A DNA stretch of 64,000 bases from Candidatus Marinacidobacterales bacterium (GCA_965226495.1 OZ245365.1:2272001-2336000); one strand, 5' to 3'. Positions 7,465 to 43,043 are shown, numbered from the stretch's first letter. Numbers and translations are program-made. Notes: generated by a model not told the origin, from the sequence alone.

Positions 7465-7541
<77 letters not shown>

Positions 7542-25793: not shown

Positions 25794-25870
25794 GCGCCTG
25801 TAGCTCAGTAGGATAGAGCGACGGATTCCTAATCCGTAGGTCGGAGGTTCAAGTCCTCTCAGGCGTACCA
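25794..25870 (+). tRNA. tRNA-Arg(CCT)
   Basis: GCGCCTG...CAGGCGT-ACCA; anticodon arm ACGGA-TTCCTAA-TCCGT. Confidence 0.96.
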
Positions 25871-25873
25871 TTT
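25823..25873 (+). repeat. attL: 51-bp direct repeat (tRNA-Arg 3' half)
   Basis: Identical to 42993-43043. Confidence 0.92.
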
Positions 25874-27464: not shown

Positions 27465-27572
27465 GTGTCACAAACGCTAGCAGAGCAACTTGCGGAAGGC
27501 AATCTGTGTTCGTGGAAGAGGCGATCCGCGGATGCTAGAATTGTCTTACTGAAGCTCCACAATCAGTAAGAG

Positions 27573-28254
27573 GTGCGTTTCGTGCCCCACGCTATTAGAA
27601 GGCTGCCTTTAGTCTGCTTTCTGCTGCTCGCCGTCTACCTCCTAGCGCCAGCTACCCTCTCCGCCCAGACCTTCTCCGGCAAGGTTGTCGGAATCTCGGA
27701 CGGCGACACTATTAAGGTCCTCCGGGACGGCATAGAAACCAAGATCCGCATGGAAGGCATCGACTGCCCGGAATCGGGCGAGCCCTTCTCCGCCAAGGCC
27801 AAGAAGTTCACATCCAGTTTGGTCTATGGAAAGACCGTCACCATCCGGGTCAAAGAGACGGATCGGTATGGTCGCCTCGGGAAGAGTCATTGCCGACGGC
27901 CAGGATGTCTCAATCGCACTCGTCCAAGCGGGCCTCGCTTGGCACTACACCAAGTACTCCTCCGACCCGGCCCTCGCCCAAGCGGAGAAGACTGCCCGCG
28001 CCGCCGAAATCGGCATCTGGTCCCTTCCGAATCCCGCGCCCCCTTGGGAGCTAAGGGCCCAAGCGGTGGCATCGCAATCAGCGGTTAGTCAGTCAGAGCA
28101 ATCCGGAACCGTCTACCGGGGCAACCGAAACAGCCACGTGTTCCACGCTCCCTCGTGTCGCTACTACAGTTGTAAAAACTGCACGGCCATCTTTAATTCG
28201 AGAGAAGACGCAATCAAAGCCGGCTATCGACCCGGCGGCCACTGCAAGCCTTAG
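27573..28254 (+). pseudogene. Thermonuclease (SNase) with C-terminal Ada-like metal-binding domain; frameshift near 27880
   Basis: ISDGDT, IRMEGIDCPE, DRYGR in one frame; LVQAGLAW..GIWS..PWE..GNRNSHVFH..C in another. Confidence 0.85.
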
Positions 28255-28261
28255 CCGGATA

Positions 28262-28405
28262 GTTGGTGCCGGACTCGTTGCCATCCTGGTCGTGGTGATC
28301 GCCGGTCTTTTTACCGGTGACGTGCGGGACTGGATCGCCGGAAGAAACGACTCCCCTCGAATTGAAACGATTGCTGTTTTGTCCCTCGGCTACCGCGTTC
28401 GTTAG
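28262..28405 (+). pseudogene. Remnant of TM/TolB-like region of a kinase- or cyclase-TPR gene
   Basis: VGAGLVAILVVVIAGLFTGDVRDWIAGRNDSPRIETIAVLSL resembles the TM-...SIAVLPL segment. Confidence 0.4.
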
Positions 28406-28455
28406 TCCGGAGAAGATCGGCTAGGATGTCTTGAGAACCGCCGAGACCCTTTGCC

Positions 28456-29853
28456 ATGAGAACTCATAAAGCCGTACACGTCTTCGAAGTTGGAGGACTC
28501 CCGCAGCACACATACGTCGCAAGGCATGAGTTCGATCTTGAGTCAAGGTTGGCGATGGTAACTGACAACATGTGCAAACTGGCCGTCGTATCCGGCCCCA
28601 CGAAATCGGGGAAGACGGTGCTGTCGAGAAAAGTCCTTCCCAAGGAAAAAGCTGTTTGGTTGGATGCTGGTGGCATCGACAATGACAACCAACTTTGGAC
28701 AGAAGTCGTGAACGAGCTTGAGGGCGCTACGTCTGTCGAGGAGACTTTAGAATCACGCTCTGACACGACTGTAACAGGATCCGTCGAGGCGGAGGCGAAA
28801 GTCCCGCTACTGATTAGCGGTACGGGCGCTGTATCCACCGAACGCCAGAGATCCCGTGGAACCGGCACTCGGAAGAGTCGGTCCCGCTCTGTTAAGGCGG
28901 CGGCGCTGGCAGCTCTCAGGGAGTCCCGGCGACCACTTGTGATTGACGACTTTCATTGCCTAGGCGCATCGGACCAGGCCGCTATAGTAAGAGCTTTGAA
29001 ACCCCTTGTTTTCGACGGCCAACCAGTAGTAATCCTTACCATACCGCATCGTCGCTTTGACGCCGTAAAGCTTGAGCGTGAAATGACAGGGCGCGTTGAG
29101 GTCATTGAGATTCCGCCCTGGACACCTACAGAACTCAATCGCATTCCACAGATGGGATTCGAGCTATTGAACGCGAATGTAGATGATTCCCTGATGCGAT
29201 TTTTTGCTGCTGAAGCTCTCGGAAGTCCGCACCTCATGCAAGATTTTTGCTTCAGGCTTTGTTTGACTTGCGGCCTACCGGAAACCGCTCAAGAGAATGT
29301 GAGCTTGCGGCTGTCGAATGCCGACACCGAGCTGCTGCTAAACCGAATTGCAAGTGGTGCCAACAGTGCAGTGTTTGATCGGCTGGCTAGGGCCTACCGT
29401 CAAGAGAATGTGAGCTTGCGGCTGTCGAATGCCGACACCGAGCTGCTGCTAAACCGAATTGCAAGTGGTGCCAACAGTGCAGTGTTTGATCGGCTGGCTA
29501 GGGGGCCGCGACGACGCTCCGCTCGAAAACAGCGCCAACTTGTGGATGGTTCGCAAGATGATATCTACGGAATATTACTTCGAGCAATCGCCGAACTCGG
29601 TCCGGGCGTAGAAAGCCTCGCATACGAGGAGATTCGGGACTCAGTGAGAGAAATATTGGACTATGGTGAGCCTACGCCAAGATCTCATGAGATATCTAGA
29701 GTCCTAAACCATATGACTGAGATAGCGATCCAAGATGGAGCACGAGTACCCGTCATAGAATGGGATGCAAAAGATCATCAGCTTCACATTTCTGACCCGT
29801 TCTTTGCGTTTTGCCTGAAGTGGGGCCCTTACGCTGCTCGCATTGCTACGTAA
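28456..29853 (+). CDS. P-loop ATPase (AAA/STAND-like) with putative winged-helix C-terminus
   Basis: Walker A GPTKSGKT, Walker B LVIDDFH, GSP motif, C-terminal LHISDPFFAF..KW. Confidence 0.8.
   Translation: MRTHKAVHVFEVGGLPQHTYVARHEFDLESRLAMVTDNMCKLAVVSGPTKSGKTVLSRKVLPKEKAVWLDAGGIDNDNQLWTEVVNELEGATSVEETLESRSDTTVTGSVEAEAKVPLLISGTGAVSTERQRSRGTGTRKSRSRSVKAAALAALRESRRPLVIDDFHCLGASDQAAIVRALKPLVFDGQPVVILTIPHRRFDAVKLEREMTGRVEVIEIPPWTPTELNRIPQMGFELLNANVDDSLMRFFAAEALGSPHLMQDFCFRLCLTCGLPETAQENVSLRLSNADTELLLNRIASGANSAVFDRLARAYRQENVSLRLSNADTELLLNRIASGANSAVFDRLARGPRRRSARKQRQLVDGSQDDIYGILLRAIAELGPGVESLAYEEIRDSVREILDYGEPTPRSHEISRVLNHMTEIAIQDGARVPVIEWDAKDHQLHISDPFFAFCLKWGPYAARIAT
29290..29503 (+). repeat. 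Exact 103-bp tandem duplication (period 111 bp) inside the ATPase
   Basis: 29290-29392 identical to 29401-29503. Confidence 0.93.
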
Positions 29854-30149: not shown

Positions 30150-30179
30150 TTGACTTTTCAGCCTGTAGAGGGCTATTTT
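30150..30179 (+). promoter_or_regulatory. Putative promoter of the kinase array
   Basis: TTGACT-18 nt-TATTTT. Confidence 0.35.
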
Positions 30180-30198
30180 CATGCTCAAAGGGCTAGCC

Positions 30199-32928
30199 AT
30201 GTCATTAACCCCCGGCACGAAGCTGGGTCCCTATGAAATCCTGGCACCTCTAGGTGCAGGTGGCATGGGTGAGGTCTACAAAGCCAAAGACACCCGGCTC
30301 GACCGCACGGTCGCCATCAAAGTCCTCCCCGCTCACGTCGCCAGCCATCCGGAAGTCCGCCAGAGATTCGAGCGAGAAGCTCGCGCCGTCTCGAGCCTGA
30401 ACCACCCGCACATCTGCACGCTTTTCGACATCGGCAGCGAGAATGGCATCGACTTCATGGTCATGGAGCACATCGAGGGAGATACGCTCGCCGATCGATT
30501 GAAGAAAGGCGCACTGCCCCTCGACCAGGCACTGCAGTACGGAATCGAGATCGCCGACGCTCTCGACAAAGCTCACCGTCAAGGCGTGGTGCATCGGGAT
30601 CTGAAGCCCGGGAACATCATGCTCACGAAGACCGGAGCAAAGCTTCTCGATTTTGGGCTTGCGAAGATGACGGCGGCGGAAACGAATGCCGGCGGTTTGT
30701 CGGCGTTGCCCACTGAAGCGCAGCCGCTCACGAAAGAAGGTTCGATACTCGGCACTTTCCAGTACATGGCCCCGGAGCAACTCGAAGGCAACGAAGCCGA
30801 CGCCCGCTCCGACATCTTCGCTTTCGGTTCCGTGCTCTACGAGATGGTGACCGGCAAGCGAGCGTTCGAGGGAAAGAGTCAGGCGAGCCTCATCGCAGCC
30901 ATTCTAGAGCACGAGCCCCCGGCGATGTCCACGCTCCAAACGATGACGCCGCCTGTTCTGGATCACGTGGTCCGGAGGTGCTTGGCGAAGGATCCCGACG
31001 AACGCTGGCAAACGGCGCACGATCTCACGGCCGAATTGAATTGGATCGTCGAGGCTGGCTCGCAGCCCGGTGTTACCTCACCGCTCGTTCCTGGGCGGCG
31101 AGTGTCTCGACGGCTGGCAGCAGGGATTCTTGGCTTTCTCCTCGGAAGTGTTTTCGTCTGGAACCTAAAGCCCGGTGCACCAACCGCCGGTTCTGTCACG
31201 CGTCTGCGCATGGGGTTGCAGCCTGCCGAGGAAATCGGCGGCTTCTTTTTGGAAACCGTATTGGCCGGATGGCGCCCGACTCGCACCGCGGTGGCTTTTT
31301 CGCCCGACGGCCGACACCTCGTTTACCGTGGTGGGGCGGGTGAGACCTGGCAGCTTTACCTACGCCCCATGGATCAGGCTGAAGCTTCACCCATGCCTGG
31401 TACCGAAGGCGCCGTCGGCCCGTTCTTCTCGCCTGACGGTCAATGGGTGGGCTTCTGGGCCAACGGCGAGCTCCGAAAGGTCCGGCTGACGGGTGGGCCC
31501 TCGGCGGCCGTGTGCGAGACACCCCTCCTGTTCGGTGCGAGTTGGGGCGAGGAGAACACGATTGTCTTTGCTCAATATACTGGGGGCCTTTGGTCTGTCT
31601 CGGCAGATGGTGGTACGCCCAAGGAACTGACTACTTTGAGGGAGGGCGAAGTGAGCCACCGCCTCCCGGAGGTCCTGCCTGGCGCCAAGGCCGTGATTTT
31701 CACTGTCAGCAAGCGTTCTTTTGAGTGGAAAGATGCGGAGATCGCAATGCAGGACTTGGCGACGGGTGAACGGAGGGTTCTTGTCGCAGAGGCTGCGGAC
31801 GCTCGGTACGTTCGCACCGGGCATCTATTGTATGCCCGATTAGGAACCCTGATGGCCGTGCCGTTTGATCTCGAACGTCTGGAGGTGACGGGCGGTTCGC
31901 TTCCGGTCATCGAAGGTGTGATGCAGGCGGTATACGCCGGCCATTCTGCGATCGACACAGGCGCCGCGCAGTTTAGTGTGTCCGGCGCCGGATCACTAGT
32001 CTATGTCGAAGGCGGAACCTACCCGCTACTCCGGAAGTCGTTGGTCTGGGTCGACCGCGAAGGAAGAGCACAGCCATTGGGGGGGACGGAACGTGGGTAT
32101 TGGCACCCTCGGCTCTCGCCTGATGGTCGACGGGTGGCCGTCTTCATTTCGGAGCCCGAGCAGAGGGACATTTTTGTCTACGACATCTCTCGTGGCACGC
32201 TCACTCGGGTGACGCAGGAAGGAGCGAACGCTTATCCCGCTTGGTCACCGGATGGTAAGCGAGTCGCTTTCCAGTCGACGACGGGTGGACCGGCGAACAT
32301 CTTTTGGGTACAGCCGGACGGTAGCGCCCTCGAACGGCTCACGACCAGCGAAAACCGGCAGTATCCCGCCTCGTGGTCCCCGGACGGTAAGGCGCTTGCC
32401 TTCCTGGAGGGTAGAGACATCTGGGTGCTGCCGTTCGACAACGGCGAGCATGAACCGAGGCCTGTCGTCCAAACGCGGTTCGAGGAAGAATACCCCACGT
32501 TTTCACCTGACGGTCGTTGGCTAGCGTACACTTCCGATGAGTCTGGCCGGCGCGAGGTTTACGTCCAGCCCTATCCCGGTCCAGGGCCGAGGACCCAGAT
32601 CTCCGTTGAAGGTGGAATGTCCCCGGCGTGGGCACGCAACGGCCGAGAACTGTTCTATCGCGTGCTGTCCGGCGGGCGCTGGGGAGGAAAGCGCAAAATG
32701 ATGGCGGTCAAGATCACGACGGACCCGACTTTTATTGCTGGAAAGCCCCGCATGCTCTTCGAGGAGGCCGGCTACCAACCGAGCGAACCCTTTAGAAGTT
32801 ACGATGTCGCTGCCGACGGGCGGTTTCTAATGCTCGAGATGGCCGAGCAGCCAAGTCAACGCGTGACCGAGCTCCGTGTGGTCCTCAACTGGTTCGAAGA
32901 ACTCAAGCGACTCGTTCCCACGAACTAG
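30199..32928 (+). CDS. Hanks-type Ser/Thr kinase + TM + PD40/TolB-like beta-propeller (kinase 1)
   Basis: GAGGMGEVY, AIK, HRDLKPGN, DFG, APE; repeated SPDG motifs. Confidence 0.95.
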   Translation: MSLTPGTKLGPYEILAPLGAGGMGEVYKAKDTRLDRTVAIKVLPAHVASHPEVRQRFEREARAVSSLNHPHICTLFDIGSENGIDFMVMEHIEGDTLADRLKKGALPLDQALQYGIEIADALDKAHRQGVVHRDLKPGNIMLTKTGAKLLDFGLAKMTAAETNAGGLSALPTEAQPLTKEGSILGTFQYMAPEQLEGNEADARSDIFAFGSVLYEMVTGKRAFEGKSQASLIAAILEHEPPAMSTLQTMTPPVLDHVVRRCLAKDPDERWQTAHDLTAELNWIVEAGSQPGVTSPLVPGRRVSRRLAAGILGFLLGSVFVWNLKPGAPTAGSVTRLRMGLQPAEEIGGFFLETVLAGWRPTRTAVAFSPDGRHLVYRGGAGETWQLYLRPMDQAEASPMPGTEGAVGPFFSPDGQWVGFWANGELRKVRLTGGPSAAVCETPLLFGASWGEENTIVFAQYTGGLWSVSADGGTPKELTTLREGEVSHRLPEVLPGAKAVIFTVSKRSFEWKDAEIAMQDLATGERRVLVAEAADARYVRTGHLLYARLGTLMAVPFDLERLEVTGGSLPVIEGVMQAVYAGHSAIDTGAAQFSVSGAGSLVYVEGGTYPLLRKSLVWVDREGRAQPLGGTERGYWHPRLSPDGRRVAVFISEPEQRDIFVYDISRGTLTRVTQEGANAYPAWSPDGKRVAFQSTTGGPANIFWVQPDGSALERLTTSENRQYPASWSPDGKALAFLEGRDIWVLPFDNGEHEPRPVVQTRFEEEYPTFSPDGRWLAYTSDESGRREVYVQPYPGPGPRTQISVEGGMSPAWARNGRELFYRVLSGGRWGGKRKMMAVKITTDPTFIAGKPRMLFEEAGYQPSEPFRSYDVAADGRFLMLEMAEQPSQRVTELRVVLNWFEELKRLVPTN

Positions 32929-32931
32929 GTC

Positions 32932-35586
32932 ATGGCACTCGACGCTGGCACAAAGCTAGGACCCTACGAGATTCTCTCCCCTATCGGTGCAGGAGGCATG
33001 GGTGAGGTTTACAAAGCCAAAGACACTCGGCTTGATCGCACCGTTGCCATCAAAGTCCTTCCCTCTCACGTAGCCGGCAACCCCGAAGTCCGTCAGAGAT
33101 TTGAACGTGAAGCCCGTGCCGTCTCCAGCCTCAACCATCCCAACATATGCACGCTTCACGACATCGGCAGCGAAAACGGCATCGACTTCATGGTCATGGA
33201 GCACATCGAAGGAGACACCCTCGCGGACCGATTAAGGAAAGGGGCTTTACCTCTCGACCAGGCTCTACAGTATGGAATCGAGGTTGCCGACGCTCTGGAC
33301 AAAGCCCATCGCCAAGGCGTCGTACATCGGGATCTGAAGCCCGGGAACATCATGCTGACGAAGTCAGGGGCCAAGCTGCTTGACTTCGGGCTTGCCAAGA
33401 TGTCGGCCGCACAAACGAATGCCGCTGGTCTATCGGCGTTGCCCACTGAAGCGCAGCCGCTCACGAAAGAAGGTTCGATTCTCGGCACGTTCCAGTACAT
33501 GGCCCCCGAGCAGCTTGAAGGGAAAGAAGCCGATGCACGCACGGACATCTTCGCTTTTGGTTCCGTGCTTTACGAGATGGTGACTGGCAAGCGTGCGTTC
33601 GAGGGCAAGAGCCAGGCAAGCCTCATCGCAGCCATTCTCGAGCACGAGCCACCGGCGATGTCCACTCTCCAAACGATGACCCCGCCTCTTCTGGATCACG
33701 TGGTCCGGACATGTCTCGCCAAAGATCCGGACGAGCGGTGGCAATCAGCATCCGATGTGATGCGCGAGCTTGCTTGGATTTCTAACGAAGGCTCCGACGC
33801 TGGTCCCGCTTCTTCCGTTCAAGCCAGCGGTAGAACCAGGAAGCGGCTCGTTCTCGGGCTAGTTGCGGGAACTGCCCTTGGCGCTCTCTTGGCAAGCATT
33901 GTCTGGAACGCGAAACTGCAGCCGGAACCAGCAGGGCCCGTCTTGCGGGTGGACCTGGCACTCCCACCTGACCAGCGAGTGACCGATGGACTGCGTGTCG
34001 TGGCTCTCTCGCCCGACGGCACACATCTTGTCTATCGCGCGAACAACCAACTCTACCTGCGCAACATGAGAGAGCGGCATACGTCGGCGATCGCCGGCAC
34101 GGACGGCGGCCAATTCCCCTTCTTCTCGTCCGACGGACAGTGGGTAGCGTTCTGGTCTCCGATGGGGAGGGTGCTCAAAAAAGTATCCATCAGTGGTGGA
34201 ACACCCCTGACGTTGTGCGATGCAGACCTCCCTTGGGGAGCGAGCTGGGGTTCTGACGACGCCATCGTCTACCAACAGGGGACCGGAGCCATCTTGCGGA
34301 TTTCGACGGCAGGTGGCACGCCGGAGGTCTTGGTCTCTGATGAGGGGCGAGACCTTCGCCAACCCGAGATGCTTCCCGACGGAAAAACGCTACTGTTCAC
34401 GGCTGGCGCGTCGCTGTCCTTGGGGAGTCAGAGGCAAATCCTCGCCCGCTCCCTGGAGACCGGAGAGGAGCATGTTCTAATCGAAGGGGCCTCCGATGGG
34501 CGATATGTTCCGAGCGGGCACCTAGTTTATCGCCATGACGGGTCGCTCCTGGCGGTACCCTTCGATGTCGATCGCCTCGAGGTAACCGGCGGTCCGGTTC
34601 CTCTGCCAGAGAGCGTGAACGAGATTCGGGGAACCGGCATGGCACAATTCAGTTTTTCTCGAGCTGGTAGCTTGGTCTACGTTCAAGGAGGCTTCAGCCA
34701 ATCCACGTTGGTATGGGTGGATCGCCAAGGAATCTCACGGCCAGTCATCGAAACTCGGGGTGCCTATTCGACCCCTAGGCTCTCACCGGATGGCCAACGT
34801 CTCGCCGTCACTGCCGTTGATGAGAATAACCAACGCAAAGTTTGGATACTGGATCTGGCTCGAGGCTCCCAAAGCCGGTTAACCTTCGAGGGAGACTCCA
34901 CGGATCCGGTCTGGACTCCCGACGGCAAGACAATCCTTTTTGCCTCCACTCGGTCGCAGTTCTCTTTTAACATCTTCTCGATGCCTGCCGACGGCCGTGG
35001 CGAAGCCAGACCGATGTCAACCAACGACACGGCGACCTTCCCGTCTTTTGTGTCGCCGGACGGAAAGAACCTACTCTTTATCAAGGGCCTTGACACGATC
35101 GGTTACTTGCCGCTTGAGGGCGATGGCAACCCGACGATCCTGTTCGACACGCCCTATGGCGAGTTGTTCCCAACTGTTTCACTCGACGGTCGATGGCTCG
35201 CGTACGTTTCCGACGAGTCGGGCCGGCAGCAGGTTTACGTACGAGATTTCCCGGACCTCGAAGGCAAATGGCAAGTTTCCAGCGAAGGCGGGACGGAGCC
35301 GCTGTGGTCCCCTCGTGGCGGCGAGCTCTTTTACCGCAATGGCAACAAGATGATGGTAGTTTCGGTCTCGACGGAGTCTACTTTCGAGCATGGCACGCCG
35401 GCATTGTTGTTTGAGGGCAACTATGAAACTGACCCGGTCGGCGGCAATGCGCTCAACTACCATGTCTCGTCTGACGGCCAGGAGTTCGTGATGGTCGAGA
35501 CATACCAGGAGGCATTGGGATCGACGCAACTGAACCTAGTCCTCAACTGGTTCGAAGAACTCAAGAAACTCGCCCCAACAAACTAA
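32932..35586 (+). CDS. Hanks-type Ser/Thr kinase + TM + PD40 beta-propeller (kinase 2)
   Basis: Same motifs; kinase domain nearly identical to kinase 1. Confidence 0.95.
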   Translation: MALDAGTKLGPYEILSPIGAGGMGEVYKAKDTRLDRTVAIKVLPSHVAGNPEVRQRFEREARAVSSLNHPNICTLHDIGSENGIDFMVMEHIEGDTLADRLRKGALPLDQALQYGIEVADALDKAHRQGVVHRDLKPGNIMLTKSGAKLLDFGLAKMSAAQTNAAGLSALPTEAQPLTKEGSILGTFQYMAPEQLEGKEADARTDIFAFGSVLYEMVTGKRAFEGKSQASLIAAILEHEPPAMSTLQTMTPPLLDHVVRTCLAKDPDERWQSASDVMRELAWISNEGSDAGPASSVQASGRTRKRLVLGLVAGTALGALLASIVWNAKLQPEPAGPVLRVDLALPPDQRVTDGLRVVALSPDGTHLVYRANNQLYLRNMRERHTSAIAGTDGGQFPFFSSDGQWVAFWSPMGRVLKKVSISGGTPLTLCDADLPWGASWGSDDAIVYQQGTGAILRISTAGGTPEVLVSDEGRDLRQPEMLPDGKTLLFTAGASLSLGSQRQILARSLETGEEHVLIEGASDGRYVPSGHLVYRHDGSLLAVPFDVDRLEVTGGPVPLPESVNEIRGTGMAQFSFSRAGSLVYVQGGFSQSTLVWVDRQGISRPVIETRGAYSTPRLSPDGQRLAVTAVDENNQRKVWILDLARGSQSRLTFEGDSTDPVWTPDGKTILFASTRSQFSFNIFSMPADGRGEARPMSTNDTATFPSFVSPDGKNLLFIKGLDTIGYLPLEGDGNPTILFDTPYGELFPTVSLDGRWLAYVSDESGRQQVYVRDFPDLEGKWQVSSEGGTEPLWSPRGGELFYRNGNKMMVVSVSTESTFEHGTPALLFEGNYETDPVGGNALNYHVSSDGQEFVMVETYQEALGSTQLNLVLNWFEELKKLAPTN

Positions 35587-35589
35587 CCG

Positions 35590-37060
35590 ATGGCACTCGA
35601 AGCCGGAAGGAAGCTGGGTCTCTACGAGATCCTCGAGCCCATCGGCGCCGGTGGAATGGGAGAGGTCTACCGCGCCCGGGACACGAAGCTCGGTCGTGAA
35701 GTCGCCATCAAAGTCCTGCCCGAAGCCTTCGCCGAGAACGAAGAACGCCTAGCCCGCTTCGAGCGAGAAGCCAAAGTCCTCGCCCAGCTGAACCACCCAG
35801 GCATCGCTCATCTCTATGGACTCGAGCAGTCCGAAAGCATCAATTACCTGGCGATGGAGCTCGTGGACGGTGACACGCTTGCCGAGCGGATTGCGCGTGG
35901 CCCGATTGCCGTTGATGAAGCCCTTCCGCTTTGCCAGCAGATTGCGGAAGCAGTGGAGGCAGCTCACGAGAAAGGGATCATCCACCGTGACCTGAAACCA
36001 GCCAACATCAAGGTCAACTCCGAAGGCAAAGTGAAGGTACTCGACTTCGGTCTGGCCAAGGCCTTCGCGGAAGAGACACCGGACGCCGATTCCTCGATGT
36101 CCCCGACCCTCACACGGGACTCGACGCGAGTGGGGGTCATTCTCGGTACCGCGGCCTACATGAGCCCGGAGCAGGCGAAGGGCAAGGCTGTCGATAAACG
36201 CACGGATATCTTCTCCTTCGGTATCGTGCTTTTCGAGATGTTGACGGGAAAAAAGGCGTTCGCCGGGGACGATGTCTCGGACGTTTTAGCAAGCATCATC
36301 AAGTTGGAGCCCGATTGGAAAGCTGTTTCTGATTTCGACCCGCGCGTGCAGAACCTCATCCGTCGCTGTCTCCGGAAAGACCGGAAGAACCGTCTCCAGG
36401 CCATCGGGGATGTCCGCATCGAGATTCAAGAGATCCTCGCCAAGCCGGAAGGTGCATCCCCAGAGCAGCCCATAGCAATCTCTGCCCGGAGCAGAAGGAG
36501 AGAAAGGGTCGCCTGGGGACTGGTGATAGTCTTCGGCGCGCTCCTCGCAAGCATCGCTGTCTGGAGCGTGATGCGTGGCGAGCCGCGTGCGCAGACCATC
36601 ACCCGCTTTTCCGTAACGTTGCCACCAGGGGACTTCCTGACGGGTACCGGCCGTCGTGTTGTAGCTCTCTCGCCGGACGGAACTCACTTTGTCTATGTCG
36701 CCAACCAGCAACTCTATCTCCGCAAGATGGACCAATTGGAGGCGGCCCCCATCCGCGGCACCGATGTGAGCCCAATAAGTCCTTTCTTCTCCTCCGACGG
36801 TCAGTGGGTGGGGTTCTTCTCTTATAACAAACTCATGAAGGTCTCAGTGACGGGCGGGGCACCGGTGACCTTAAGCGAGAATGGCAATCCCTATGGTGCG
36901 AGCAGCTGGGGTGATGACACTATCGTCTTCGGGCAAGAGGGGGGCATCCTTCGCGTCTCGGCCAATGGCGGCACGCCGGAGGTTCTCGTCCCCATGGACT
37001 CCGGACAATGGGCTACTGGGCCGCAGATGCTGCCAGACGGGGAAACGGTCCTCCGGAGCG
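35590..37060 (+). pseudogene. Kinase 3, N-terminal part (kinase + TM + start of propeller), interrupted by IS3
   Basis: HRDLKPAN, DFG, SPEQ; similarity to paralogues stops at LPDGETVL. Confidence 0.9.
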
Positions 37061-37093
37061 TGTCAACAACATTGAGACACCCGGGAGCTGCAT

Positions 37094-38233
37094 TTAGTGA
37101 GCCTCGATTGGTGTCAGGAGGCTCGTGACGTGGTTTTTGTCCACGTCTGCCTGGATCGAGATCTCGTTACGTGGAGCGGAAAAAGGGGGGACCCCAGGTA
37201 TGGACCACCCGGAGAAAGTGGTTCCTAGGCGATCCTCGCGCGTCTTTTTCTCAGGTGGAGGGTTGATCCAAGCCTGAGACGGCAAAACAGGGGGTTGAGG
37301 TCTTCCACGGACGAAGCGTTCGGGATGAGCCCGATGAGCGGCGAGGAGCGTGTGTCGGCGAGCCGCGTTGAGTTGTTCGGCGCGACCCTGATGAACGACG
37401 GCCGGTGTCATGAGACCGATTCCCGAGTGCCGGTGTTCGTAGTTGTAGTAGTCGAAGAAGTTGCGGGAGAACAGGCGAGCATCTTCGATGGAGCCGAAAC
37501 GACGCGGGAACTGGGGGCAATACTTCAGCGTCTTGAACTGAGACTCGGAGTAGGGATTGTCGTTCGAGACGTGAGGTCGGGAGTGAGTCTTGGTCACGCC
37601 GAGATCGGCCAGGAGCAAGGCGACGGACTTGCTTCGCATCGAGCTGCCCCGATCCGCGTGGATGGTGAGCTGGCCTGGTTCAATGCCTTGCTTGCGACAG
37701 CTCTCGCCGATGAGACGACGAGCGAGCTCGGCGCTTTCTCGGTGAGCCAGCATCCAGCCCGTCACGTAGCGGGAGAAGATGTCCAGGATGACGTAGAGGT
37801 AGTAGTAGGTCCACTTGACCGGACCACGAAGTTTCGTGATGTCCCACGACCAAACCTGGTTCGGGGTTTCGGCCAACAGCTCCGGCTTGCGGTAGTTCGG
37901 ATGGCGCAGCTGGTTCCGGCGTTCTCGGACTTCTCCGTGCTCCGACAATATCCGATACATCGTGCGGATCGAGCAGTAGTAGGTTCCCTCGTCCAGAAGC
38001 GTGGCCCACATTTCGGCGGGCGCCTTGTCGACAAACTGCTCGGAGTGCAAGGCGCCGAGCACCTGCTCTCGCTCGGTTTCGCCAAGGGCTCGGTGGGGCC
38101 GAGGGCGACGCTTCGGTCTGGACGTCACCGGCCGACGACGACGATACAGCGTAGAACGAACGACTCCCAGGGCCTCACACGCTTCCGCTGTCTGTCCAAT
38201 CCGTCCCGCCAGCTCCTCGGCCGCCGCCATCAA
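37094..38233 (-). CDS. IS3 transposase OrfB (DDE)
   Basis: WSWDIT, DIFSR, HADRG, NDNPYSESQFKTLK. Confidence 0.95.
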   Translation of the reverse strand: MMAAAEELAGRIGQTAEACEALGVVRSTLYRRRRPVTSRPKRRPRPHRALGETEREQVLGALHSEQFVDKAPAEMWATLLDEGTYYCSIRTMYRILSEHGEVRERRNQLRHPNYRKPELLAETPNQVWSWDITKLRGPVKWTYYYLYVILDIFSRYVTGWMLAHRESAELARRLIGESCRKQGIEPGQLTIHADRGSSMRSKSVALLLADLGVTKTHSRPHVSNDNPYSESQFKTLKYCPQFPRRFGSIEDARLFSRNFFDYYNYEHRHSGIGLMTPAVVHQGRAEQLNAARRHTLLAAHRAHPERFVRGRPQPPVLPSQAWINPPPEKKTREDRLGTTFSGWSIPGVPPFSAPRNEISIQADVDKNHVTSLLTPIEAH

Positions 38234-38697
38234 TCGTTCTCGTCGCTGTCGGGCGGATTCAGGGGGATCCCCAGGAGCTCGGAGGCTTTTTTTTGGATCT
38301 CGAGCATCGTCTCCACCCGAGCGAGGCGACGCTTCAGTCGCGTGTTCTCGCGCGCGAGTTCCTTGACTCGAGGATCCTCGACCTTGCCCTTTCGTCCCCG
38401 CTTGATTGCGGCGAGCCCGACCCCCGCAATCTCATCCCGCTGGCGACGCCAACTCGACAGGAGCGACGAGTACAGTCCTTCTCGACGCAGAAGCGCTCCC
38501 ACATCGCCATCGCCCTTGCAGGCATCCGCTTCACGCAGTATCCGCAGCTTGTACTCCGCGGTAAAGCGTCGACGCTTCGCTTGTTCACTCACTTCGGGAT
38601 CCGGGGCCACCACTGCTTCGCGGCGGGCGGGCTCTACAGTCGCCCTTCCGGCTCCTTCCGACCCCGCCAAGTTCGTCTTCTCAGTCAACAGACTCAT
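38230..38697 (-). CDS. IS3 transposase OrfA
   Basis: RRRFTAEYKLRIL...LLRREGLYSS; A8 slippery run at 38287-38294 leads into the open -1 orfB frame. Confidence 0.92.
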   Translation of the reverse strand: MSLLTEKTNLAGSEGAGRATVEPARREAVVAPDPEVSEQAKRRRFTAEYKLRILREADACKGDGDVGALLRREGLYSSLLSSWRRQRDEIAGVGLAAIKRGRKGKVEDPRVKELARENTRLKRRLARVETMLEIQKKASELLGIPLNPPDSDEND

Positions 38698-38767
38698 TCA
38701 TGATCCTCCTCCGCCTTCCACACTAATTTCAAGGGGCGGAGTGTCTCAAGCATGTTGGCACGGAGGG

Positions 38768-39784
38768 CTAACCGGTGGTCCAGTTCCGATTGTCGAAGAT
38801 GTCGCGCGCGCGCGCGCAACCGGGGCGGCGCAAGCGAGCTTCTCCGATTCCGGATCGCTCGTCTACGTTCCAACGTTTCTATCTGGGGCTATGCGCGAGT
38901 TGGTCTGGGTCGACCGCGACGGAGTCGAGCATCCCCTCATCGAGCGGCGGGCAGGCTATCTGGTCCCTCGACTCTCCCCGGATGGCCGTAGACTGGCCGT
39001 TACGATCATGGAAGACGACCGAGACATCTGGGTTTATGAGATGGCCCGAGATACGCTGACTCCGCTGACGTTTGCAGCAGGAGACGACACCGATCCCGTC
39101 TGGTCGCCCGATGGCCAGCGCGTCGCCTTTTACTCGAGCCGGTCTAATGCAGATGGCACAGTGGGGGGCCTACTTACAAAAGCAGCTGATGGCAGTGGCG
39201 AAGCCGTCGCGCTAAACACCACATTAGGACATCATCCCTCTTCCTGGTCGGCGGACGGCAATGTGATCGTCTTCCGGACGGACACAGGAGGGGAGGATAT
39301 CGGAGTGCTTTACTTGGATGGCGAGCCGAAAGACGAGATTCTCCTAGGAACGCCGTTTCGGGAACTCCATCCGAGCTTGTCACTGAACGGTCGCTGGCTC
39401 GCCTACACCACGGACGAGTCGGGCCAGAGGGAGGTGTACGTGCGGCCCTTTCCCGGCCCTGGCGGCAAGTGGCAGATTTCGACGAGGGGAGGCGCGGAGC
39501 CCATCTGGGCACGGGACGGGACCGAGCTCTTCTACCGGAACGGTGACAAGATGATGGCGGTCCCCGTCTCTGCCGAAGGGACGTTCACCCGCGGGAAACC
39601 CATCGAGCTCTTTGAAGGAAGCTACGCCGTCGACCCCTTTGGCAACGATGCGATTAACTACGACGTGGCGCCCGACGGCCGCTTCGTGATGATCAAAGAA
39701 GGCAAGGAGGACTCAGCGCCAGTCCGAATCAATGTCGTCCTCAACTGGTTCGAGGAACTTAAGGAACTCGTCCCCACCAACTGA
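38768..39784 (+). pseudogene. Kinase 3, C-terminal propeller part
   Basis: LTGGPVPIVE...SPDG repeats...VVLNWFEELKELVPTN. Confidence 0.9.
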
Positions 39785-39787
39785 ACC

Positions 39788-40596
39788 ATGCCCCTCACTC
39801 CCGGCACCCGGCTCGGCAACTACGAAATCGTCTCCCCGCTCGGCTCGGGCGGCCTCATTCTACGACTGCGCCTCGGGGCTTTGCTGGCTTGTCTCCTGAT
39901 GGTTCCTGCAGTTGTCGAACCAAGTCACTGGCAGGAGCACGTTCCGGCCCGTCCGCTTCCCAGCAACCCACCGCCCTCCTATCCGGAGAAGGCACGCCAG
40001 GAGACGGTAACGGGAAAAGTCTTCTTCCGAGCACAGGTGACCGAGGAGGGTATCGTTGACTCTGTTCAGATTCTGAAAGTGCCCGCGCCAGACATGGGTT
40101 TCGAGGACGCTGTGGAGAAAGCCGTGAGAGTTTGGCAGTTTGAGCCCGCTCGCGTCGACGGACGGCCAATTCTGTCCACGTACGTGGGCAGCGTCAATTT
40201 CGGACTCTATCCCATCAACGAAAAAGGTATCCGCGAAAAAGGTATCCGCGAGGCGGTGAAGCAAGCCGAGTCCGCATGGAACAAAGGTGAGGCGAAGGCG
40301 ATTGCCAATCTGCTGGATTCAGATGGCCACATCCATTCGATTGACGGCTTGGCCAAAGGCCCGACTGAGGTTGAGAGTTGGTTTGCTGAGCAGTTGTCCG
40401 GGGCCTACGAAGGGAGCAGATTAGCACTGACCCTGGACATGATTCGCTTCCTAGAATCGGGCGATGCCCAGGTCGTCTTGAGTTTTGAGATAACGCGCCC
40501 CGGCCCCGAAGAGGAGGAGATGCCGTTAAGCGAGGGACGTGTTACTGCCCACATGATCCCAAAAGTCGGCGCTTGGTTAGTCAGGCGTGGGCACAG
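39788..40596 (+). pseudogene. Kinase 5' stub fused to TonB C-terminal domain + NTF2/SnoaL-like domain; 3' end interrupted by IS3
   Basis: MPLTPGTRLGNYEIVSPLGSGG then PPSYPEKAR..G.V...WQFEPA..DGRP, then AWNKG.A.AIA.L...W. Confidence 0.7.
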
Positions 40597-40661
40597 TGTT
40601 CTAGTTCAGTTGAAACGTGACACCAACCGGCTCCAAGATAAGGAGCCAAGAGGAGTCACAG

Positions 40662-40988
40662 ATGAGCCATCAAACCCGCCGAAAGTTCAGCGCCGAGGAA
40701 AAGGCCGCGTTGCTGCGCCAGCACCTTGTGGACAAGAAGCCCGTGTCGGACGTGTGCGACGAGCACGGCATCCAGCCGAGCGTGTTCTACAACTGGCAGC
40801 GTCAGCTGATGGAGAATATGGCCGCCTCTCTCGACGGGGGCGCACGGCATCGCAAGAGCAACGGGCAGGAGGAAAGGCTCGCGCGCGAGATCGAATCGTT
40901 GAGGGCAAAGCTCGCGAAGAAGGACAACGTGATCGCGGAGGTGTCGGAAGAGTTTGTACGCCTAAAAAAAGAACTTGGGGAGCCCTGA
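40662..40988 (+). CDS. IS3 transposase OrfA
   Basis: RRKFSAEEK...VSDVCDEHGIQPSVFYNW. Confidence 0.92.
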   Translation: MSHQTRRKFSAEEKAALLRQHLVDKKPVSDVCDEHGIQPSVFYNWQRQLMENMAASLDGGARHRKSNGQEERLAREIESLRAKLAKKDNVIAEVSEEFVRLKKELGEP

Positions 40989-41956
40989 CGGGTCGCTGGG
41001 TCCCCCCCGATACCCGAGACGAGGTCGTGGACTTCGTGACGAAGTGGTCGGCTACAACCGAGCTGCCGGCGACGCGGTTCGCAGCGTGGTTGGGTGTCGC
41101 CCGTGGAAAATACTACGCGTGGAAAAACCACTACGGCCGCGCCCACGAGCATAACGGCAAGATTCCGCGAGATCACTGGATCGAAGCGCGGGAGCGAGAG
41201 GCGATCCTCGACTACTTCGATGCCCATCCCCTCGACGGCTATCGTCGCCTAAGCTTCATGATGCTCGACGAGGATGTCGTCGCCGTGAGCCCGTCGACGG
41301 CGTTCCGGACGCTGCGGGACGCGGGCCGTCTCGATCGCTTCAATGGTCGGCCATCGAAGAAGGGTACCGGATTCGTGCAGCCTGACGGGGCTCACAAGCA
41401 CTGGCATATCGACATCTCGTACCTCAACCTCGCCGGGACCTTCTACTATCTGTGCTCGATTCTCGACGGCTACAGCCGTTTCATTGTCCATTGGGAAATC
41501 CGCGAGTCGATGAAGGAGTCCGAAGTCGAGACCATCCTGCAGCGAGCACGCGAGAAGTTTCCCGATGCTCGCCCTCGCATCATCAGCGACAACGGACCGC
41601 AGTTCATCGCTCGCGACTTCAAGGCGTTCATTCGACTCTCAGGCATGACCCACGTTCGAACCGCACCCTACTACCCGCAGTCCAACGGCAAGATCGAGGC
41701 GTGGCACAAGACGCTCAAAACCACGACCATCCGGCCCAATGCTCCAGCGTCCGTCGACGACGCCCGTCGCCTCGTCGCGTCCTTCGTCACCTACTACAAC
41801 GACAAGCGTCTTCACAGCGCCACAGGCTACATCGCACCCGCCGACAAGCTCGCTGGCCGAGAACACATCATCTGGACCCAACGCGATGCTAAGCTCGAGG
41901 CGGCTCGCGAGCTTCGACGTCAACGCCGCGCTCAACTCCGGGAGACACCAGCGTGA
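40964..41956 (+). CDS. IS3 transposase OrfB (reached by -1 frameshift at A7G, 40964-40971)
   Basis: WHIDIS, DGYSR, SDNGPQF, PQSNGKIE. Confidence 0.92.
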   Translation, partial: KKRTWGALTGRWVPPDTRDEVVDFVTKWSATTELPATRFAAWLGVARGKYYAWKNHYGRAHEHNGKIPRDHWIEAREREAILDYFDAHPLDGYRRLSFMMLDEDVVAVSPSTAFRTLRDAGRLDRFNGRPSKKGTGFVQPDGAHKHWHIDISYLNLAGTFYYLCSILDGYSRFIVHWEIRESMKESEVETILQRAREKFPDARPRIISDNGPQFIARDFKAFIRLSGMTHVRTAPYYPQSNGKIEAWHKTLKTTTIRPNAPASVDDARRLVASFVTYYNDKRLHSATGYIAPADKLAGREHIIWTQRDAKLEAARELRRQRRAQLRETPA

Positions 41957-42181
41957 TCGTCCGTTTCAACAGCCTCAGTCCAACACGTGTTCGACTGCGT
42001 TATCCTGCTAACCGCAATGTCGCGTTCCCGCTGAACCAATACAGTCGCCGCGCGCCGCCTGAACAGACCTAGACAGGGCCTGGATTACTCCTGTAATTCC
42101 GCGCTTTCCGCGGTTTTCGTGTTTGGGCATACGTAATTTCCTCTCTCTTCTATTTTCTCACGAAGAAAAAGACGCGCCCCT

Positions 42182-42992: not shown

Positions 42993-43043
42993 GGATTCCT
43001 AATCCGTAGGTCGGAGGTTCAAGTCCTCTCAGGCGTACCATTT
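42993..43043 (+). repeat. attR: duplicated tRNA-Arg 3' half
   Basis: GGATTCCTAATCCGTAGGTCGGAGGTTCAAGTCCTCTCAGGCGTACCATTT identical to 25823-25873. Confidence 0.92.

Follow-up and report, generated by a model that had tools for sequence, protein, structure and literature searches.

Head-to-tail genes for double-propeller receptor kinases on a tRNA-Arg island: a probable operon with family-wide tails and junctions, a mosaic history and signs of decay

Tandem genes for receptor-type kinases, in which similar kinases are joined to dissimilar sensors, raise the question of whether their conserved parts serve to exchange the variable ones. In plant receptor-like kinase clusters, tandem genes combine a conserved kinase with a divergent ectodomain and undergo unequal exchange among paralogues. 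The window analysed here, a stretch of 64,000 nucleotides from Candidatus Marinacidobacterales bacterium (GCA_965226495.1 OZ245365.1:2272001-2336000), carries an array that by analogy shows the same working pattern, in contrast to which its sensors are non-homologous to those of plants and its genes would be operonic and translationally coupled. A preliminary description had viewed it as a diversifying receptor repertoire, with conserved ends acting as recombination handles. The reading that we consider probable is that of a head-to-tail operon of paralogous receptor kinases, with a tail and junction common to the family and an old exchange of modules, now decaying in an island.

Table 1. Features of the array and of the island around it (positions counted from the first nucleotide of the window).
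Feature	Position	Strand	Remarks
tRNA-Arg (anticodon CCT)	25794..25870	+	ARAGORN; 3' part forms the left island repeat
attL-like 51-nt direct repeat	25823..25873	+	tRNA-Arg 3' part + TTT; 51/51 identical to 42993-43043
Left arm of island	26334..29853	.	GC 0.552 vs 0.591 in genome
Left-arm ORF, 376 aa	within 26334..29853	-	no family assignment
SNase-like nuclease, left arm	27573-28088		
AAA-type ORF, 465 aa, left arm	28456-29853		matches candidate defence family PDC-S59
Promoter-like site	30150..30179	+	TTGACT-18-TATTTT, precedes gene 1; sole + strand site across 29800-40700
Gene 1	30199..32928	+	909 aa; Hanks Ser/Thr kinase (A type), hydrophobic stretch, two TolB-like propellers, C-terminal helix; from Pfam, AF2 model, PknB and TolB superposition
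Gene 1 tail, stop, 3 nt and gene 2 ATG	32881..32934	+	counterparts at 35539-35592 and 39737-39790
Gene 2	32932..35586	+	884 aa; architecture as gene 1; kinase core A type
Gene 3, N part	35590..37053	+	488 codons; B-type kinase, membrane segment, beginning of first propeller
IS3-family insertion sequence	37054..38767	-	1,714 bp; splits gene 3; HTH_Tnp_1 and rve matches
orfB (rve) of IS3 element	37094-38233	-	
orfA (HTH_Tnp_1) of IS3 element	38230-38697	-	
Gene 3, C part	38768..39784	+	338 aa + stop; ectodomain end with family tail
Stub of fourth kinase gene	39788..39853	+	22 codons, MPLTPGTRLGNYEIVSPLGSGG
TonB_C + SgcJ/EcaC-like coding sequence	39854..40596	+	fused in frame to stub; truncated by second IS
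Second IS, rve transposase	40597..42043	+	4 genome copies, ~99.7% identity
attR-like 51-nt repeat copy	42993..43043	+	immediately before purine nucleoside permease gene

The features of the locus are collected in Table 1, the start of gene 1 having been set by the N-termini of paralogues. Three kinase-membrane segment-PD40 genes and the start of a fourth had been proposed, which stands for genes 1 and 2, whereas gene 3 is split by an insertion sequence and of the fourth there is only the stub. Model PF00069 (Pkinase) was matched at 167.2, 165.8 and 188.2 bits by genes 1 and 2 and the N part of gene 3 (cut-off 31.7), and PF07676 (PD40) at 113.7, 84.8 and 70.6 bits in the array proteins. When aligned, genes 1-3 show the VAIK lysine and the HRDLKPxN, DFG and APE catalytic motifs and are predicted kinases. 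An AF2 model of gene 1 (mean pLDDT 86.5) was superposed on known structures, its kinase domain on PknB (1mru; Z 29.5, rmsd 2.2 with 254 residues aligned, Foldseek TMt 0.89) and its residues 609-884 on TolB (2ojh, Z 28.8; 1c5k, Z 26.5). The first propeller would lie at residues ~340-600, where the model is all-beta with pLDDT >90. The hydrophobic stretch LAAGILGFLLGSVFVW is apparent from the sequence, and AF2 confidence is low over residues 288-329. In the model the tail forms a strand (891-896) and a helix (898-905), and the sensor may thus end in a conserved last strand and short helix with a structural role. The array proteins appear to be Hanks kinases of the receptor type whose sensor is PD40/TolB-like; each would comprise a kinase in the cytoplasm, a single membrane helix and, in the periplasm, a pair of propellers.

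Kinase fold, motifs and the succession of kinase, hydrophobic stretch and extracytoplasmic sensor are shared with PknB/PknA-type kinases (M. tuberculosis PknB, Staphylococcus aureus Stk1). In contrast to these, the sensors of the array are two TolB-like propellers rather than PASTA repeats, with the NCBIfam model PknB_PASTA reaching 305 bits (cut-off 450), and the genes number in the tens and form tight tandem arrays. The likeness to the six-bladed beta-propeller of TolB (Tol-Pal) lies in the superposition and in the PD40 score of gene 1; however, the array proteins carry two propellers joined to a kinase, with an NWFEELK strand-helix tail at the end. TolB proper was rejected as an identification, with TIGR02800 at 143 bits (cut-off 343) and the architecture being kinase-membrane segment-propeller.

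As had been stated, genes 1 and 2 encode nearly identical kinases (91% in protein over 279 codons; 91-93% across the comparisons made), with 84% identity in DNA and a dN/dS of 0.05/0.86, whereas their ectodomains are 44-45% identical. In the collections searched the ectodomain of gene 2 has no relative above 52% identity, and its first 20 codons look like those of other second-position genes. The gene 3 kinase shares only 47-48% identity with the other two and falls in the other deep kinase clade, so that the kinase described as constant is constant in two genes of the three.

The histories of kinase and sensor were then compared across the family. The kinase tree resolves clades A and B (support 100/99), which the propeller tree, a "quick" tree of sequences only ~45% identical, mixes. 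Kinase clade B was rejected by the propeller data (delta lnL 331, p-AU 5e-64) and a propeller clade by the kinase data (delta lnL 335, p-AU 4e-5), the tested clades having been chosen after both trees had been inspected. Four-fold silent sites display the same mosaic against a baseline of ~0.32-0.37, in that gene 1 and p3424226 agree at 72/115 kinase and 37/124 propeller sites, while p2710227 and p4463426 agree at 26/67 and 108/188, respectively; the pairing of gene 1 with p2707500 in the propeller tree is without silent-site support (39/152). In a scan with FastTree likelihoods and a single breakpoint each time, separate topologies gained 656 lnL at the best position, near residue 303 between kinase and membrane helix, and 641 lnL at a second optimum near residues 558-595, close to the boundary of the two propellers. 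Comparison with database proteins taken as orthologues provided a control: gene 1 and P0004 are 79% identical in the kinase and 82% in the ectodomain (91-93% and 44-45% for gene 1 vs gene 2), and gene 3 and P0145-P0148 72-78% in the kinase and 70-76% in the N-propeller (90% and 44% for gene 3 vs p3421583 of the same genome), orthology being judged by sequence alone, such that these values would equally result if the other lineage had replaced its kinase. The incongruence of kinase and propeller trees, which had been proposed as a test, is thus found alike by AU tests, silent sites, breakpoint scan and both orthologue controls.

Kinase and sensor modules have therefore clearly moved between members of the family at some earlier time, presumably with breakpoints at the kinase/membrane helix boundary and close to where the two propellers meet, and the near-identical kinases and diverged sensors of genes 1 and 2 probably derive from such an earlier exchange among paralogues. 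Gene conversion or recombination may homogenise a promoter-plus-kinase module within subsets of the in-genome paralogues while the sensors keep diverging. In the in-genome comparison, no two paralogues had in common an HSP reaching both 80 nt in length and 88% identity. The exchange is probably old, a qualitative dating given that the NG86 dS of the gene 1/gene 2 kinases (0.86) is near saturation.

We then considered the ends of the genes. Reading of the sequence confirmed that every junction consists of a stop codon, exactly 3 nt and ATG (TAG-GTC-ATG at 32926-32934, TAA-CCG-ATG at 35584-35592 and TGA-ACC-ATG at 39782-39790), that all three reading frames end in VLNWFEELKxLxPTN, and that GTCCTCAACTGGTTCGA occurs at 32881, 35539 and 39737, with 27 nt in common between the first two tails. 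This 17-mer occurs seven times in the genome, four of these in paralogues outside the array, and the tail motif ends 26 ORFs genome-wide. At conserved columns, codon identity in the tail was 0.45 where codon usage predicts 0.42; for the kinase the observed and expected values were 0.45 and 0.38, and for the propeller 0.39 and 0.36. The DNA identity of the tail is thus real, yet it is neither specific to the array nor above what amino-acid conservation and codon bias yield, and the conservation beyond codon bias for which a check had been suggested was not found. Of the 9 kinase starts directly behind a tail in this genome, 5 have a 3-nt spacer, and 22 of its 31 tail ORFs have no downstream kinase; in other genomes a kinase starts at -4 to +5 nt after 3 of 36 tail ORFs and, in a second sample, after 15 of 67 judged tail ORFs. 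The sequence that genes 1 and 2 have in common does not extend as far as the junction, DNA identity being 70% over the first 20 codons and 85% over the next 40. The proposal that conserved tail and junction are recombination handles particular to the array is therefore not supported, both being family-wide and accounted for by protein conservation and codon bias, nor is the proposal that exchange took place at the conserved ends, none of the inferred breakpoints lying at the tail. Tail and tight junction are better regarded as inherited signatures of the family.

A leader of ~50 nt is conserved upstream of four paralogues (gene 1, p2710227, p3424226 and p4573462), and the promoter-like site is conserved in all four leaders. 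Genes 2 and 3 have no promoter-like site of their own on the + strand of 29800-40700 and no SD-like motif before either, in agreement with the earlier remark that a clear ribosome-binding site is lacking. A single promoter ~50 nt before gene 1 would drive the array. Since the downstream genes lack such sites and start 3 nt past the upstream stop, their translation by termination-reinitiation coupling is most likely; genes 1-3 would then form an operon with translational coupling, the latter as judged from spacing alone. One metatranscriptome contig (195 nt, 0 differences) includes the 3' end of gene 1 but extends only 10 nt into gene 2, and possibly represents DNA carry-over.

The element inside gene 3 belongs to the IS3 family, as evident from orfA and orfB, terminal inverted repeats (read by eye), target duplications and the presence of four genome copies at 99.9-100% identity. 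The other three copies have perfect 3-bp target duplications, whereas that in gene 3 is flanked by CTC/CTA, and the break lacks ~62 codons that both gene 2 and the aligned paralogues have. Gene 3 could be a single gene that suffered the insertion and a small adjacent deletion, or else two array genes fused by recombination between IS copies that deleted the intervening DNA, in which case the array was formerly longer. This fusion we regard as possible but doubtful. The missing duplication, the lost codons and the match of P0145-P0148 to the N part at 70-78% but to the C part at only 46-50% all agree with it; however, a family-wide evolutionary breakpoint already lies near the same inter-propeller region, gene 2 is the nearest relative in the window of both halves (54-63% and 51-62%), and an IS-adjacent deletion accounts equally well for the missing duplication. 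With gene 3 inactivated in either manner and gene 4 a stub, the array is now decaying in its island. Elsewhere in the genome, the paralogous pair p2710227/p2707500 is preceded by a copy of the second IS at a distance of 217 nt.

The array locus is a tRNA-integrated genomic island without a detectable integrase, as the preliminary description had supposed for its tRNA setting. The island measures 17.2 kb between perfect 51-nt repeats, and the two genomes of the same genus that were compared lack it at the syntenic position: in one (G002) the flanks are 86% identical and enclose unrelated content with no kinase, an intact tRNA-Arg lying directly beside the permease, and in the other (G001) the array is absent between the flanks. 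The copies of the tRNA 3' end that flank it on either side, the absence from two of two congeners, the low-GC edges and the internal IS elements are features of tRNA-integrated islands. Unlike these, an integrase was not detected (none of the seven PF00589 tyrosine-integrase matches of the genome lies inside, and the edge ORFs have no recombinase match), and the cargo kinase genes have native-looking kinase modules and a genome-typical GC (0.58-0.61, against 0.52-0.55 at the island edges).

The genome encodes ~32 full-length paralogues, mostly outside any island, and 35 of its ORFs match both kinase and propeller. As 7,771 of 8,000 scored database candidates reached E<=1e-20, the receptor-kinase family runs to thousands across Acidobacteriota, and the expansion of Hanks kinase/PD40 fusions in Acidobacteria that had been stated is upheld by these members and their Pfam matches. 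Large paralogue sets with a cytoplasmic kinase and a periplasmic WD40/TPR-type sensor are described for Myxobacteria and the Planctomycetota 'Ca. Uabimicrobium', with species-specific kinase clades put down to 'duplication and/or recombination' and some copies adjacent (PMC11032199), and Ser/Thr kinase paralogues are expanded in 'Ca. Solibacter usitatus' (PMC3174227). In the passages cited, both reports treat these expansions through kinase-domain trees only, whereas here the kinase was tested against sensor and orthologues. In the literature searched, no description of the PD40 double-propeller family, its tail or its coupled junctions was found.

How do other explanations fare against this evidence? 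That the array is diversifying at present, with conserved kinase and tail/junction as handles around a variable sensor cassette, we hold to be quite improbable. Such a view would agree with the incongruent histories of kinase and sensor, with the recurrence of tight-junction tandem arrays in this genome and in relatives, and with P0001, a near-identical copy of gene 1 from another assembly that has an internal tandem duplication of ~169 residues in its propeller. The tail, however, is family-wide and also ends genes with no kinase downstream, its codon identity equals expectation, the breakpoints fall at the kinase/membrane linker and between the propellers, and the sequence common to genes 1 and 2 ends before the junction. 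The lack of near-identical tracts between paralogues, a kinase dS of 0.86, the absence of a recombinase from the island in the tyrosine-integrase search and the decay of the array also argue against it, as do, weakly since contigs drop rare variants, contigs from three studies with the same structure and 0 differences from the window in their long pieces. A diversifying repertoire is thus not supported. Nor is a programmed diversity system (silent-cassette conversion, shufflon, DGR), as no near-identical tract between paralogues, no tyrosine recombinase in the island and no differences in the long contig pieces were found.

At the opposite extreme, genes 1-3 could be old tandem duplicates that never recombined, the kinase merely being under stronger purifying selection than the sensor. 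The low kinase dN/dS of genes 1 and 2 and the greater share of conserved columns in the kinase fit this idea, which we nevertheless consider scarcely credible, as AU tests reject congruence both ways, silent sites show the mosaic in both directions, orthologues diverge about equally in kinase and sensor, and the gene 3 kinase belongs to the other deep clade. It is only slightly less implausible that the array encodes anti-phage defence kinases (PD-T4-6-like or Stk-like) on a defence island beside a candidate ATPase and nuclease. The kinase domain does match PD-T4-6 models (E 6e-95), the neighbouring 465-aa ORF matches the candidate system PDC-S59 (E 9e-27) and an SNase-like nuclease adjoins on a tRNA island; yet the PADLOC matches are limited to the generic kinase domain (residues 9-285), which PknB-type models match equally well, the proteins carry a large periplasmic double-propeller sensor, their chromosomal paralogues lie mostly off islands, and the kinase genes are of native GC whereas the left arm is not. 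We therefore return to the array as most probably an ordinary operon, in part decayed, that belongs to an expanded family and has a mosaic history.

A further reading of this mosaic, which we put forward as speculative and rather unlikely, is that of plug-and-play receptors, in which a promoter-plus-kinase module and both propellers would be separately exchangeable cassettes and the kinase end of a newly arriving sensor, brought here by a tRNA island, would be overwritten by gene conversion from resident paralogues. It is compatible with our data because in genes 1 and 3, both testable cases, the kinase resembles in-genome paralogues more closely than it does the orthologue defined by the sensor, because four paralogues share promoter, leader and kinase, and because the island edges look foreign. 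If true, foreign or newly diverged sensors would be wired into the phospho-signalling and expression control of the host, with tight coupled arrays as the workshop for such wiring, and the family would offer a bacterial counterpart of plant receptor-repertoire evolution, attained via concerted evolution of the signalling half.

The receptor array is made up of three head-to-tail genes, each encoding a Hanks Ser/Thr kinase, a hydrophobic stretch and a PD40/TolB-like propeller sensor, followed by the stub of a fourth. The start of gene 1 was set at 30199 and not at the ORF start 30181, on the basis of the N-termini of its paralogues. As the preliminary description had reported, all three junctions consist of a stop, 3 nt and an ATG (3/3), all three ORFs carry the C-terminal tail VLNWFEELKxLxPTN, and a 17-mer DNA word within the tail is present at 32881, 35539 and 39737, with 27 nt common to tails 1 and 2. 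Genes 1 and 2 do have near-identical kinases (91% protein identity over 279 codons, 84% DNA identity, with ectodomains at 45%), but the kinase is not constant in gene 3, where it is only 47-48% identical to those of genes 1 and 2. The earlier observation was largely right, although it overlooked the IS, a deletion, the stub and the divergence of the third kinase.

Features of the receptor-kinase array and of the left arm of its island (positions in the window)
Feature	Position	Strand	Description
Gene 1	30199-32928	+	Intact; Pkinase 167 bits (cut-off 31.7), hydrophobic stretch, PD40 repeats (ORF listing, Pfam)
Gene 2	32932-35586	+	Intact; Pkinase 166 bits (cut-off 31.7), hydrophobic stretch, PD40 repeats (ORF listing, Pfam)
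Gene 3, N part	35590-37053	+	Exactly 488 codons
Element breaking gene 3	37054-38767	-	1,714 bp; orfA HTH_Tnp_1, orfB rve
Gene 3, C part	38768-39784	+	338 aa and stop
Gene 4 stub	39788-39853	+	22 kinase-like codons, in frame into TonB_C/SgcJ-like sequence
Second IS	40597-42043		Cuts TonB_C/SgcJ-like sequence at 40597; 4 genome copies at ~99.7%
Island left arm	26334-29853		SNase-like nuclease; AAA-type ORF matching PDC-S59 (E 9e-27, PADLOC candidate); unknown-family ORF with faint proteasome-like signal

The genome carries four copies of the element that splits gene 3 (identity 99.9-100%). The three outside the window are flanked by perfect 3-bp target duplications (gaa, ggg and gac), and the one in gene 3 by CTC/CTA; at the break, about 62 residues are missing relative to gene 2 and the aligned paralogues. 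Another copy of the second IS lies at C1:2713104-2714550 on the genome's contig, just upstream of the paralogous pair p2710227/p2707500 (p-names denote paralogues within the same genome), the window copy being just downstream of the array. A clear (4-bp) target duplication was seen in only one of the four copies of this second type, a pattern that hints at IS-mediated rearrangements. The notion that the window copy and the copy beside p2710227 had recombined, and had once linked the two arrays, was dropped, as their flanks have only 'cag' in common and fail the 4-bp duplication length of the one clean copy. The array is partly dead and does not represent a special mechanism.

Long pieces of the island were matched, without a single difference, by sequencing-run contigs from three studies. 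One such piece, 33552-35679, spans the junction of genes 2 and 3; another, 39730-40626, takes in the gene 3 tail as well as the stub, the TonB-like ORF and the margin of the second IS, and zero-difference pieces reach 29-30 nt into the first IS from both sides. The truncated product of gene 3, 512 aa long, is recorded in exactly this form from five contigs. Together, these matches and the recorded product indicate that, in the places sampled for the organism, the array is commonly in its decayed state. A single metatranscriptome contig (195 nt, 0 differences) covers 32747-32941, and at most this places the end of gene 1 in an RNA library. Joints in the read contigs were considered as copy-number variants and rejected: their sides are short (20-36 nt) with 90% likeness, the intervening sequence is mostly undefined, and the uncovered stretches are repeats and uninformative. 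Such joints are what paralogues and other organisms produce, and thus give no evidence of copy-number variants. Two database proteins resemble the gene 1 product closely: P0001, from another assembly (5.05-Mb contig), is identical except for an internal tandem duplication of ~169 residues in the propeller, and P0003 (5.41-Mb contig) differs in a 3-residue patch. Each difference reflects either genuine structural variation in the sensor or an error of long-read assembly.

The source genome is a single contig of 6,337,479 bp, in which BLASTP found 35 ORFs matching gene 1 in both the kinase and propeller parts. Family analyses took the best 32 of the 35, leaving out a 605-aa fragment (2486037) and two ORFs that matched only weakly (1322231 and 6139298). 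Family matches occur in 19 of 21 genomes of the same order (the source genome counted, and an unpublished genome, G007, included), each genome of two families having 27-50 matches and those of a third, ~3 Mb in size, 0-1. The same-genus genome G002 gave 13 matches at E<=1e-100, many of them partial and the set too fragmentary for surveying orthologues, from an assembly that may be error-prone, judging from stops inside several housekeeping genes. In a protein search with the gene 1 sensor, 7,771 of the 8,000 candidates scored reached E<=1e-20, and the relatives are annotated at source as Ser/Thr kinases or as 'Tol biopolymer transport system component'. By record title, related loci belong to Vicinamibacterales, Terriglobia, Solibacteraceae, Marinacidobacterales, Aminicenantes and Thermoanaerobaculia, along with a few MAGs labelled Gemmatimonadaceae, Bacteroidota or proteobacterial.

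Elsewhere on C1, a six-gene head-to-tail array of the same kinase family, with 1-nt junctions, overlaps and one larger gap, occupies 4514783-4530918 and combines kinases of both types distinguished below, A and B; further family pairs lie at 4463426-4468849, 3421583-3426922 and 2707500-2712887. Two distinct conserved sequences recur directly after the stop codon in some solo members of the family: C1:2782315, 2414627 and 1349553, and 94530, 4547771 and 4667237. One contains ...GGACCACCGGCC, and the other begins with a run of A followed by ...CACTTGACAA, resembling a -35 box. These post-stop sequences suggest that the duplicated units reach beyond the genes.

The preliminary description had proposed that the conserved ends bracket a variable sensor module, so that the array could swap sensors by recombination. 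The motif NWF.EL stands within the last 40 residues of 26 of the 16,356 ORFs of at least 100 aa, and the 17-mer occurs seven times in the genome, four of these outside the array. At alignment positions with one residue common to at least 26 of 32 paralogues, pairwise codon identity in the tail was 0.45, where the codon usage of the genome predicts 0.42 (4 columns); the corresponding values were 0.45 and 0.38 for the kinase (106 columns) and 0.39 and 0.36 for the propeller (101 columns). Some single tail positions exceed codon usage (Leu-CTC 20/25 and 22/27), as do many kinase columns (Leu40 CTC 23/31, Arg42 CGC 23/32). With codon identity this near to expectation, the DNA identity of the tails is what a conserved peptide yields in this genome.

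A kinase start follows within a few nt after 9 of 31 tail ORFs in the source genome, at spacings of -4 (2), 1 (1), 3 (5) and 8 (1). A 3-nt spacer is found at the three window junctions and at p2710227>p2707500 and p3424226>p3421583; ATGGCACTCGA follows it in four of these five, and the gene 3>stub junction reads ATGCCCCTC there instead. Of 84 nt at the gene 2>gene 3 junction, 72 are the same in p3424226>p3421583, and this likeness fits the common descent of a two-gene unit. In other species, a kinase start was found after 3 of 36 tail ORFs (spacings -1, 3 and 3; 60 genome loci), and in metagenomes after 15 of 67 judged tail ORFs (79 loci; five at contig ends left unjudged), at -4 (5), -1 (4), 0 (2) and 2, 3, 4 and 5 (1 each). 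Tight or overlapping junctions are therefore a habit of the family, and the exact 3-nt spacer is lineage-specific. The role of the tail and junction as recombination handles is not upheld, and both are instead inherited features of the family, with a probable structural and translational role.

The AF2 model of the gene 1 product, built from 68 aligned sequences, has a mean pLDDT of 86.5, and its only low-confidence parts are the activation-loop region and residues 288-329. For the kinase, the structural match is PknB (Z 29.5). Residues 334-909 form an all-beta part, where pLDDT is mostly >90, and residues 609-884 superpose on the TolB propellers 2ojh (Z 28.8, rmsd 2.7, 260 residues) and 1c5k (Z 26.5). 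Foldseek with the whole model against the PDB returned kinases only, the sensor match coming from a wider structure search. The tail forms a strand (891-896) and a helix (898-905). From this model, we infer that the ectodomain probably comprises two TolB-like propellers, at roughly 340-600 and 609-896, and that the tail would belong to the folded sensor.

The kinase and sensor differ in their histories. The kinase tree (33 rows, careful search) splits into two deep clades with support 100/99: clade A, of 21 rows, includes genes 1 and 2, p2710227 and p3424226, and clade B, of 12 rows, includes gene 3 with its sister p3421583 at 90% identity. The propeller tree (33 rows, quick search) intermixes the two, placing p2710227 (A) with p3421583, p4466189 and p4463426 (B) with support 99, and p4517478 (B) with p4520120 (A) with support 100. 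Clade B as a single clade was rejected by the propeller data (delta lnL 330.8, p-AU 4.7e-64) and the propeller clade by the kinase data (delta lnL 335.1, p-AU 4.2e-5), the groups tested having come from the other domain's tree and been chosen after both trees were known. A pairing of the gene 1 propeller with p2707500, starred in the propeller tree, was set aside, as silent sites do not bear it out (39/152). Protein identity falls steeply where the kinase ends: between gene 1 and p2710227, it is 92-100% over residues 7-206 and 33-68% from residue 287 onward. A one-breakpoint likelihood scan, comparing separate topologies with one topology with separate branch lengths, placed the best breakpoint near gene 1 residue 303, between the kinase and the membrane segment (gain 656 lnL), with a second optimum near residues 558-595 (gain 637-641 lnL), shortly ahead of residue 609, where the TolB-like match starts.

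As NG86 dS was saturated in the propeller (1.7 to >4, or undefined), identity at four-fold sites was used instead, with median baselines of 0.32 for the propeller and 0.37 for the kinase. Gene 1 and p3424226 agree at 72/115 such sites in the kinase and 37/124 in the propeller, and gene 3 and p3421583 at 72/124 in the kinase and 11/49 in the N-propeller. The opposite direction was seen for p2710227 and p4463426 (kinase 26/67, propeller 108/188) and for p4520120 and p4517478 (22/67 and 93/171). Genes 1 and 2 agree at 65/117 sites in the kinase and 58/138 in the propeller.

Database proteins served as orthologue controls. Gene 1 and P0004, which comes from another organism, are 79% identical over 189 aa of the kinase part and 82% identical over the ectodomain, whereas the gene 1 kinase is 93%, 85% and 83% identical to those of the in-genome gene 2, p2710227 and p3424226, whose ectodomains reach 40-48%. 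Likewise, gene 3 is 72-78% identical in the kinase and 70-76% in the N-propeller to P0145-P0148, as against 90% and 44% to the in-genome p3421583. Within this genome, kinase modules therefore resemble one another more closely than do those of sensor-defined orthologues, a signature left either by gene conversion or by replacement in the other lineage. Genome-collection and metagenome scans with the sensors of genes 1 and 2 gave at most 55% and 48% identity, and in the protein search relatives of the gene 2 sensor stood at <=52% among the listed matches, which did not include the window's own protein; the orthologue controls hence cover genes 1 and 3.

Gene 1, p2710227, p3424226 and p4573462 have in common a conserved stretch of ~50 nt before the ATG, including TTGACT-18-TATTTT, upstream of which conservation ends, so that the shared kinase module seems to begin at the promoter. 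The first 20 codons of gene 2 have 82% DNA identity to the second-position genes p3421583 and p4517478 and 70% to gene 1, while codons 21-240 are 85-87% identical to A-type kinases versus 53-62% to B-type; gene 2 may thus be chimeric, the first stretch being just 60 nt. With a kinase dS of 0.86 between genes 1 and 2, and no paralogue pair having an HSP of at least 80 nt at at least 88% identity, the exchange of modules is not recent. The proposal that modules were exchanged among receptors holds in that exchange shaped the family, but nothing indicates an active diversifying mechanism.

The location of the array on a tRNA island was confirmed. A 51-nt stretch at 25823-25873, made up of the 3' part of tRNA-Arg and TTT, is repeated perfectly at 42993-43043, directly before a purine nucleoside permease gene, and the two copies border an island of 17.2 kb. 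In the same-genus genome G001, the left flank and tRNA-Arg are followed 3.5 kb on by an acetyl-CoA synthetase gene, with no array. In G002, both flanks have 86% DNA identity, tRNA-Arg directly abuts the permease gene, and 15 kb of unrelated genes without a kinase lie between the flanks; this insert (within C1:173000-194000 of that genome) differs from the island, is on the other side of tRNA-Arg and has two inverted copies of a 417-aa ORF. With different inserts beside it, the tRNA-Arg neighbourhood is a hotspot in both genomes. None of the seven Phage_integrase matches of the genome falls in the island, and the 376-aa ORF adjoining the tRNA was ruled out as an integrase by Pfam, PHROGs, PADLOC and Atlas features. 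GC content is 0.591 for the genome and 0.58-0.61 for the kinase genes; the leftmost 4.3 kb of the island stand at 0.552 and the rightmost 0.95 kb at 0.521. By its gene content, the left arm may be a small defence cluster. Within its 465-aa AAA-type ORF, 29289-29510 is a 111-nt direct tandem duplication (first 104 nt identical), of which one contig each from sequencing runs X1 and X2 omits one copy (29289-29399), and a contig from X3 stops at 29288; the skipped copy reflects either true length variation or the collapse of short reads. At 25861, one X3 contig has the tRNA-Arg end and then a 157-nt loose end unlike the island, and may come from a relative without the island or with another insert. 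Two tRNA-Pro genes, with anticodons GGG and CGG, lie 1.5 kb apart at 5884-5960 and 7465-7541.

Among the uncharacterised signalling families of Acidobacteriota from soil and sea, that of the PD40/TolB-like receptor Ser/Thr kinases is one of the largest. The sections of PMC3174227 that concern 'Ca. Solibacter usitatus' place Ser/Thr kinase paralogues among its expansions and report no positive selection among them. For Planctomycetota, parts of PMC11032199 describe membrane Ser/Thr kinases with periplasmic WD40/TPR arrays and, citing Perez et al. 2008, ascribe species-specific kinase clades to 'duplication and/or recombination', some duplicates being adjacent. Literature searches on PD40 kinases in Acidobacteria, on kinomes, TolB and WD40, and on the tail motif turned up no account of the tail, junction or kinase-sensor incongruence of this family. 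The evolutionary pattern of the array is modestly interesting. As hallmarks of the family, the tail and tight junction are an aid to gene calling and family definition, and the other useful results are a predicted ectodomain of two TolB-like propellers and the measurably different histories of the kinase and sensor modules. If the likeness of kinases within a genome generalises, it would explain species-specific kinase clades in other expanded bacterial kinomes, and would caution against receptor orthology inferred from kinase trees.
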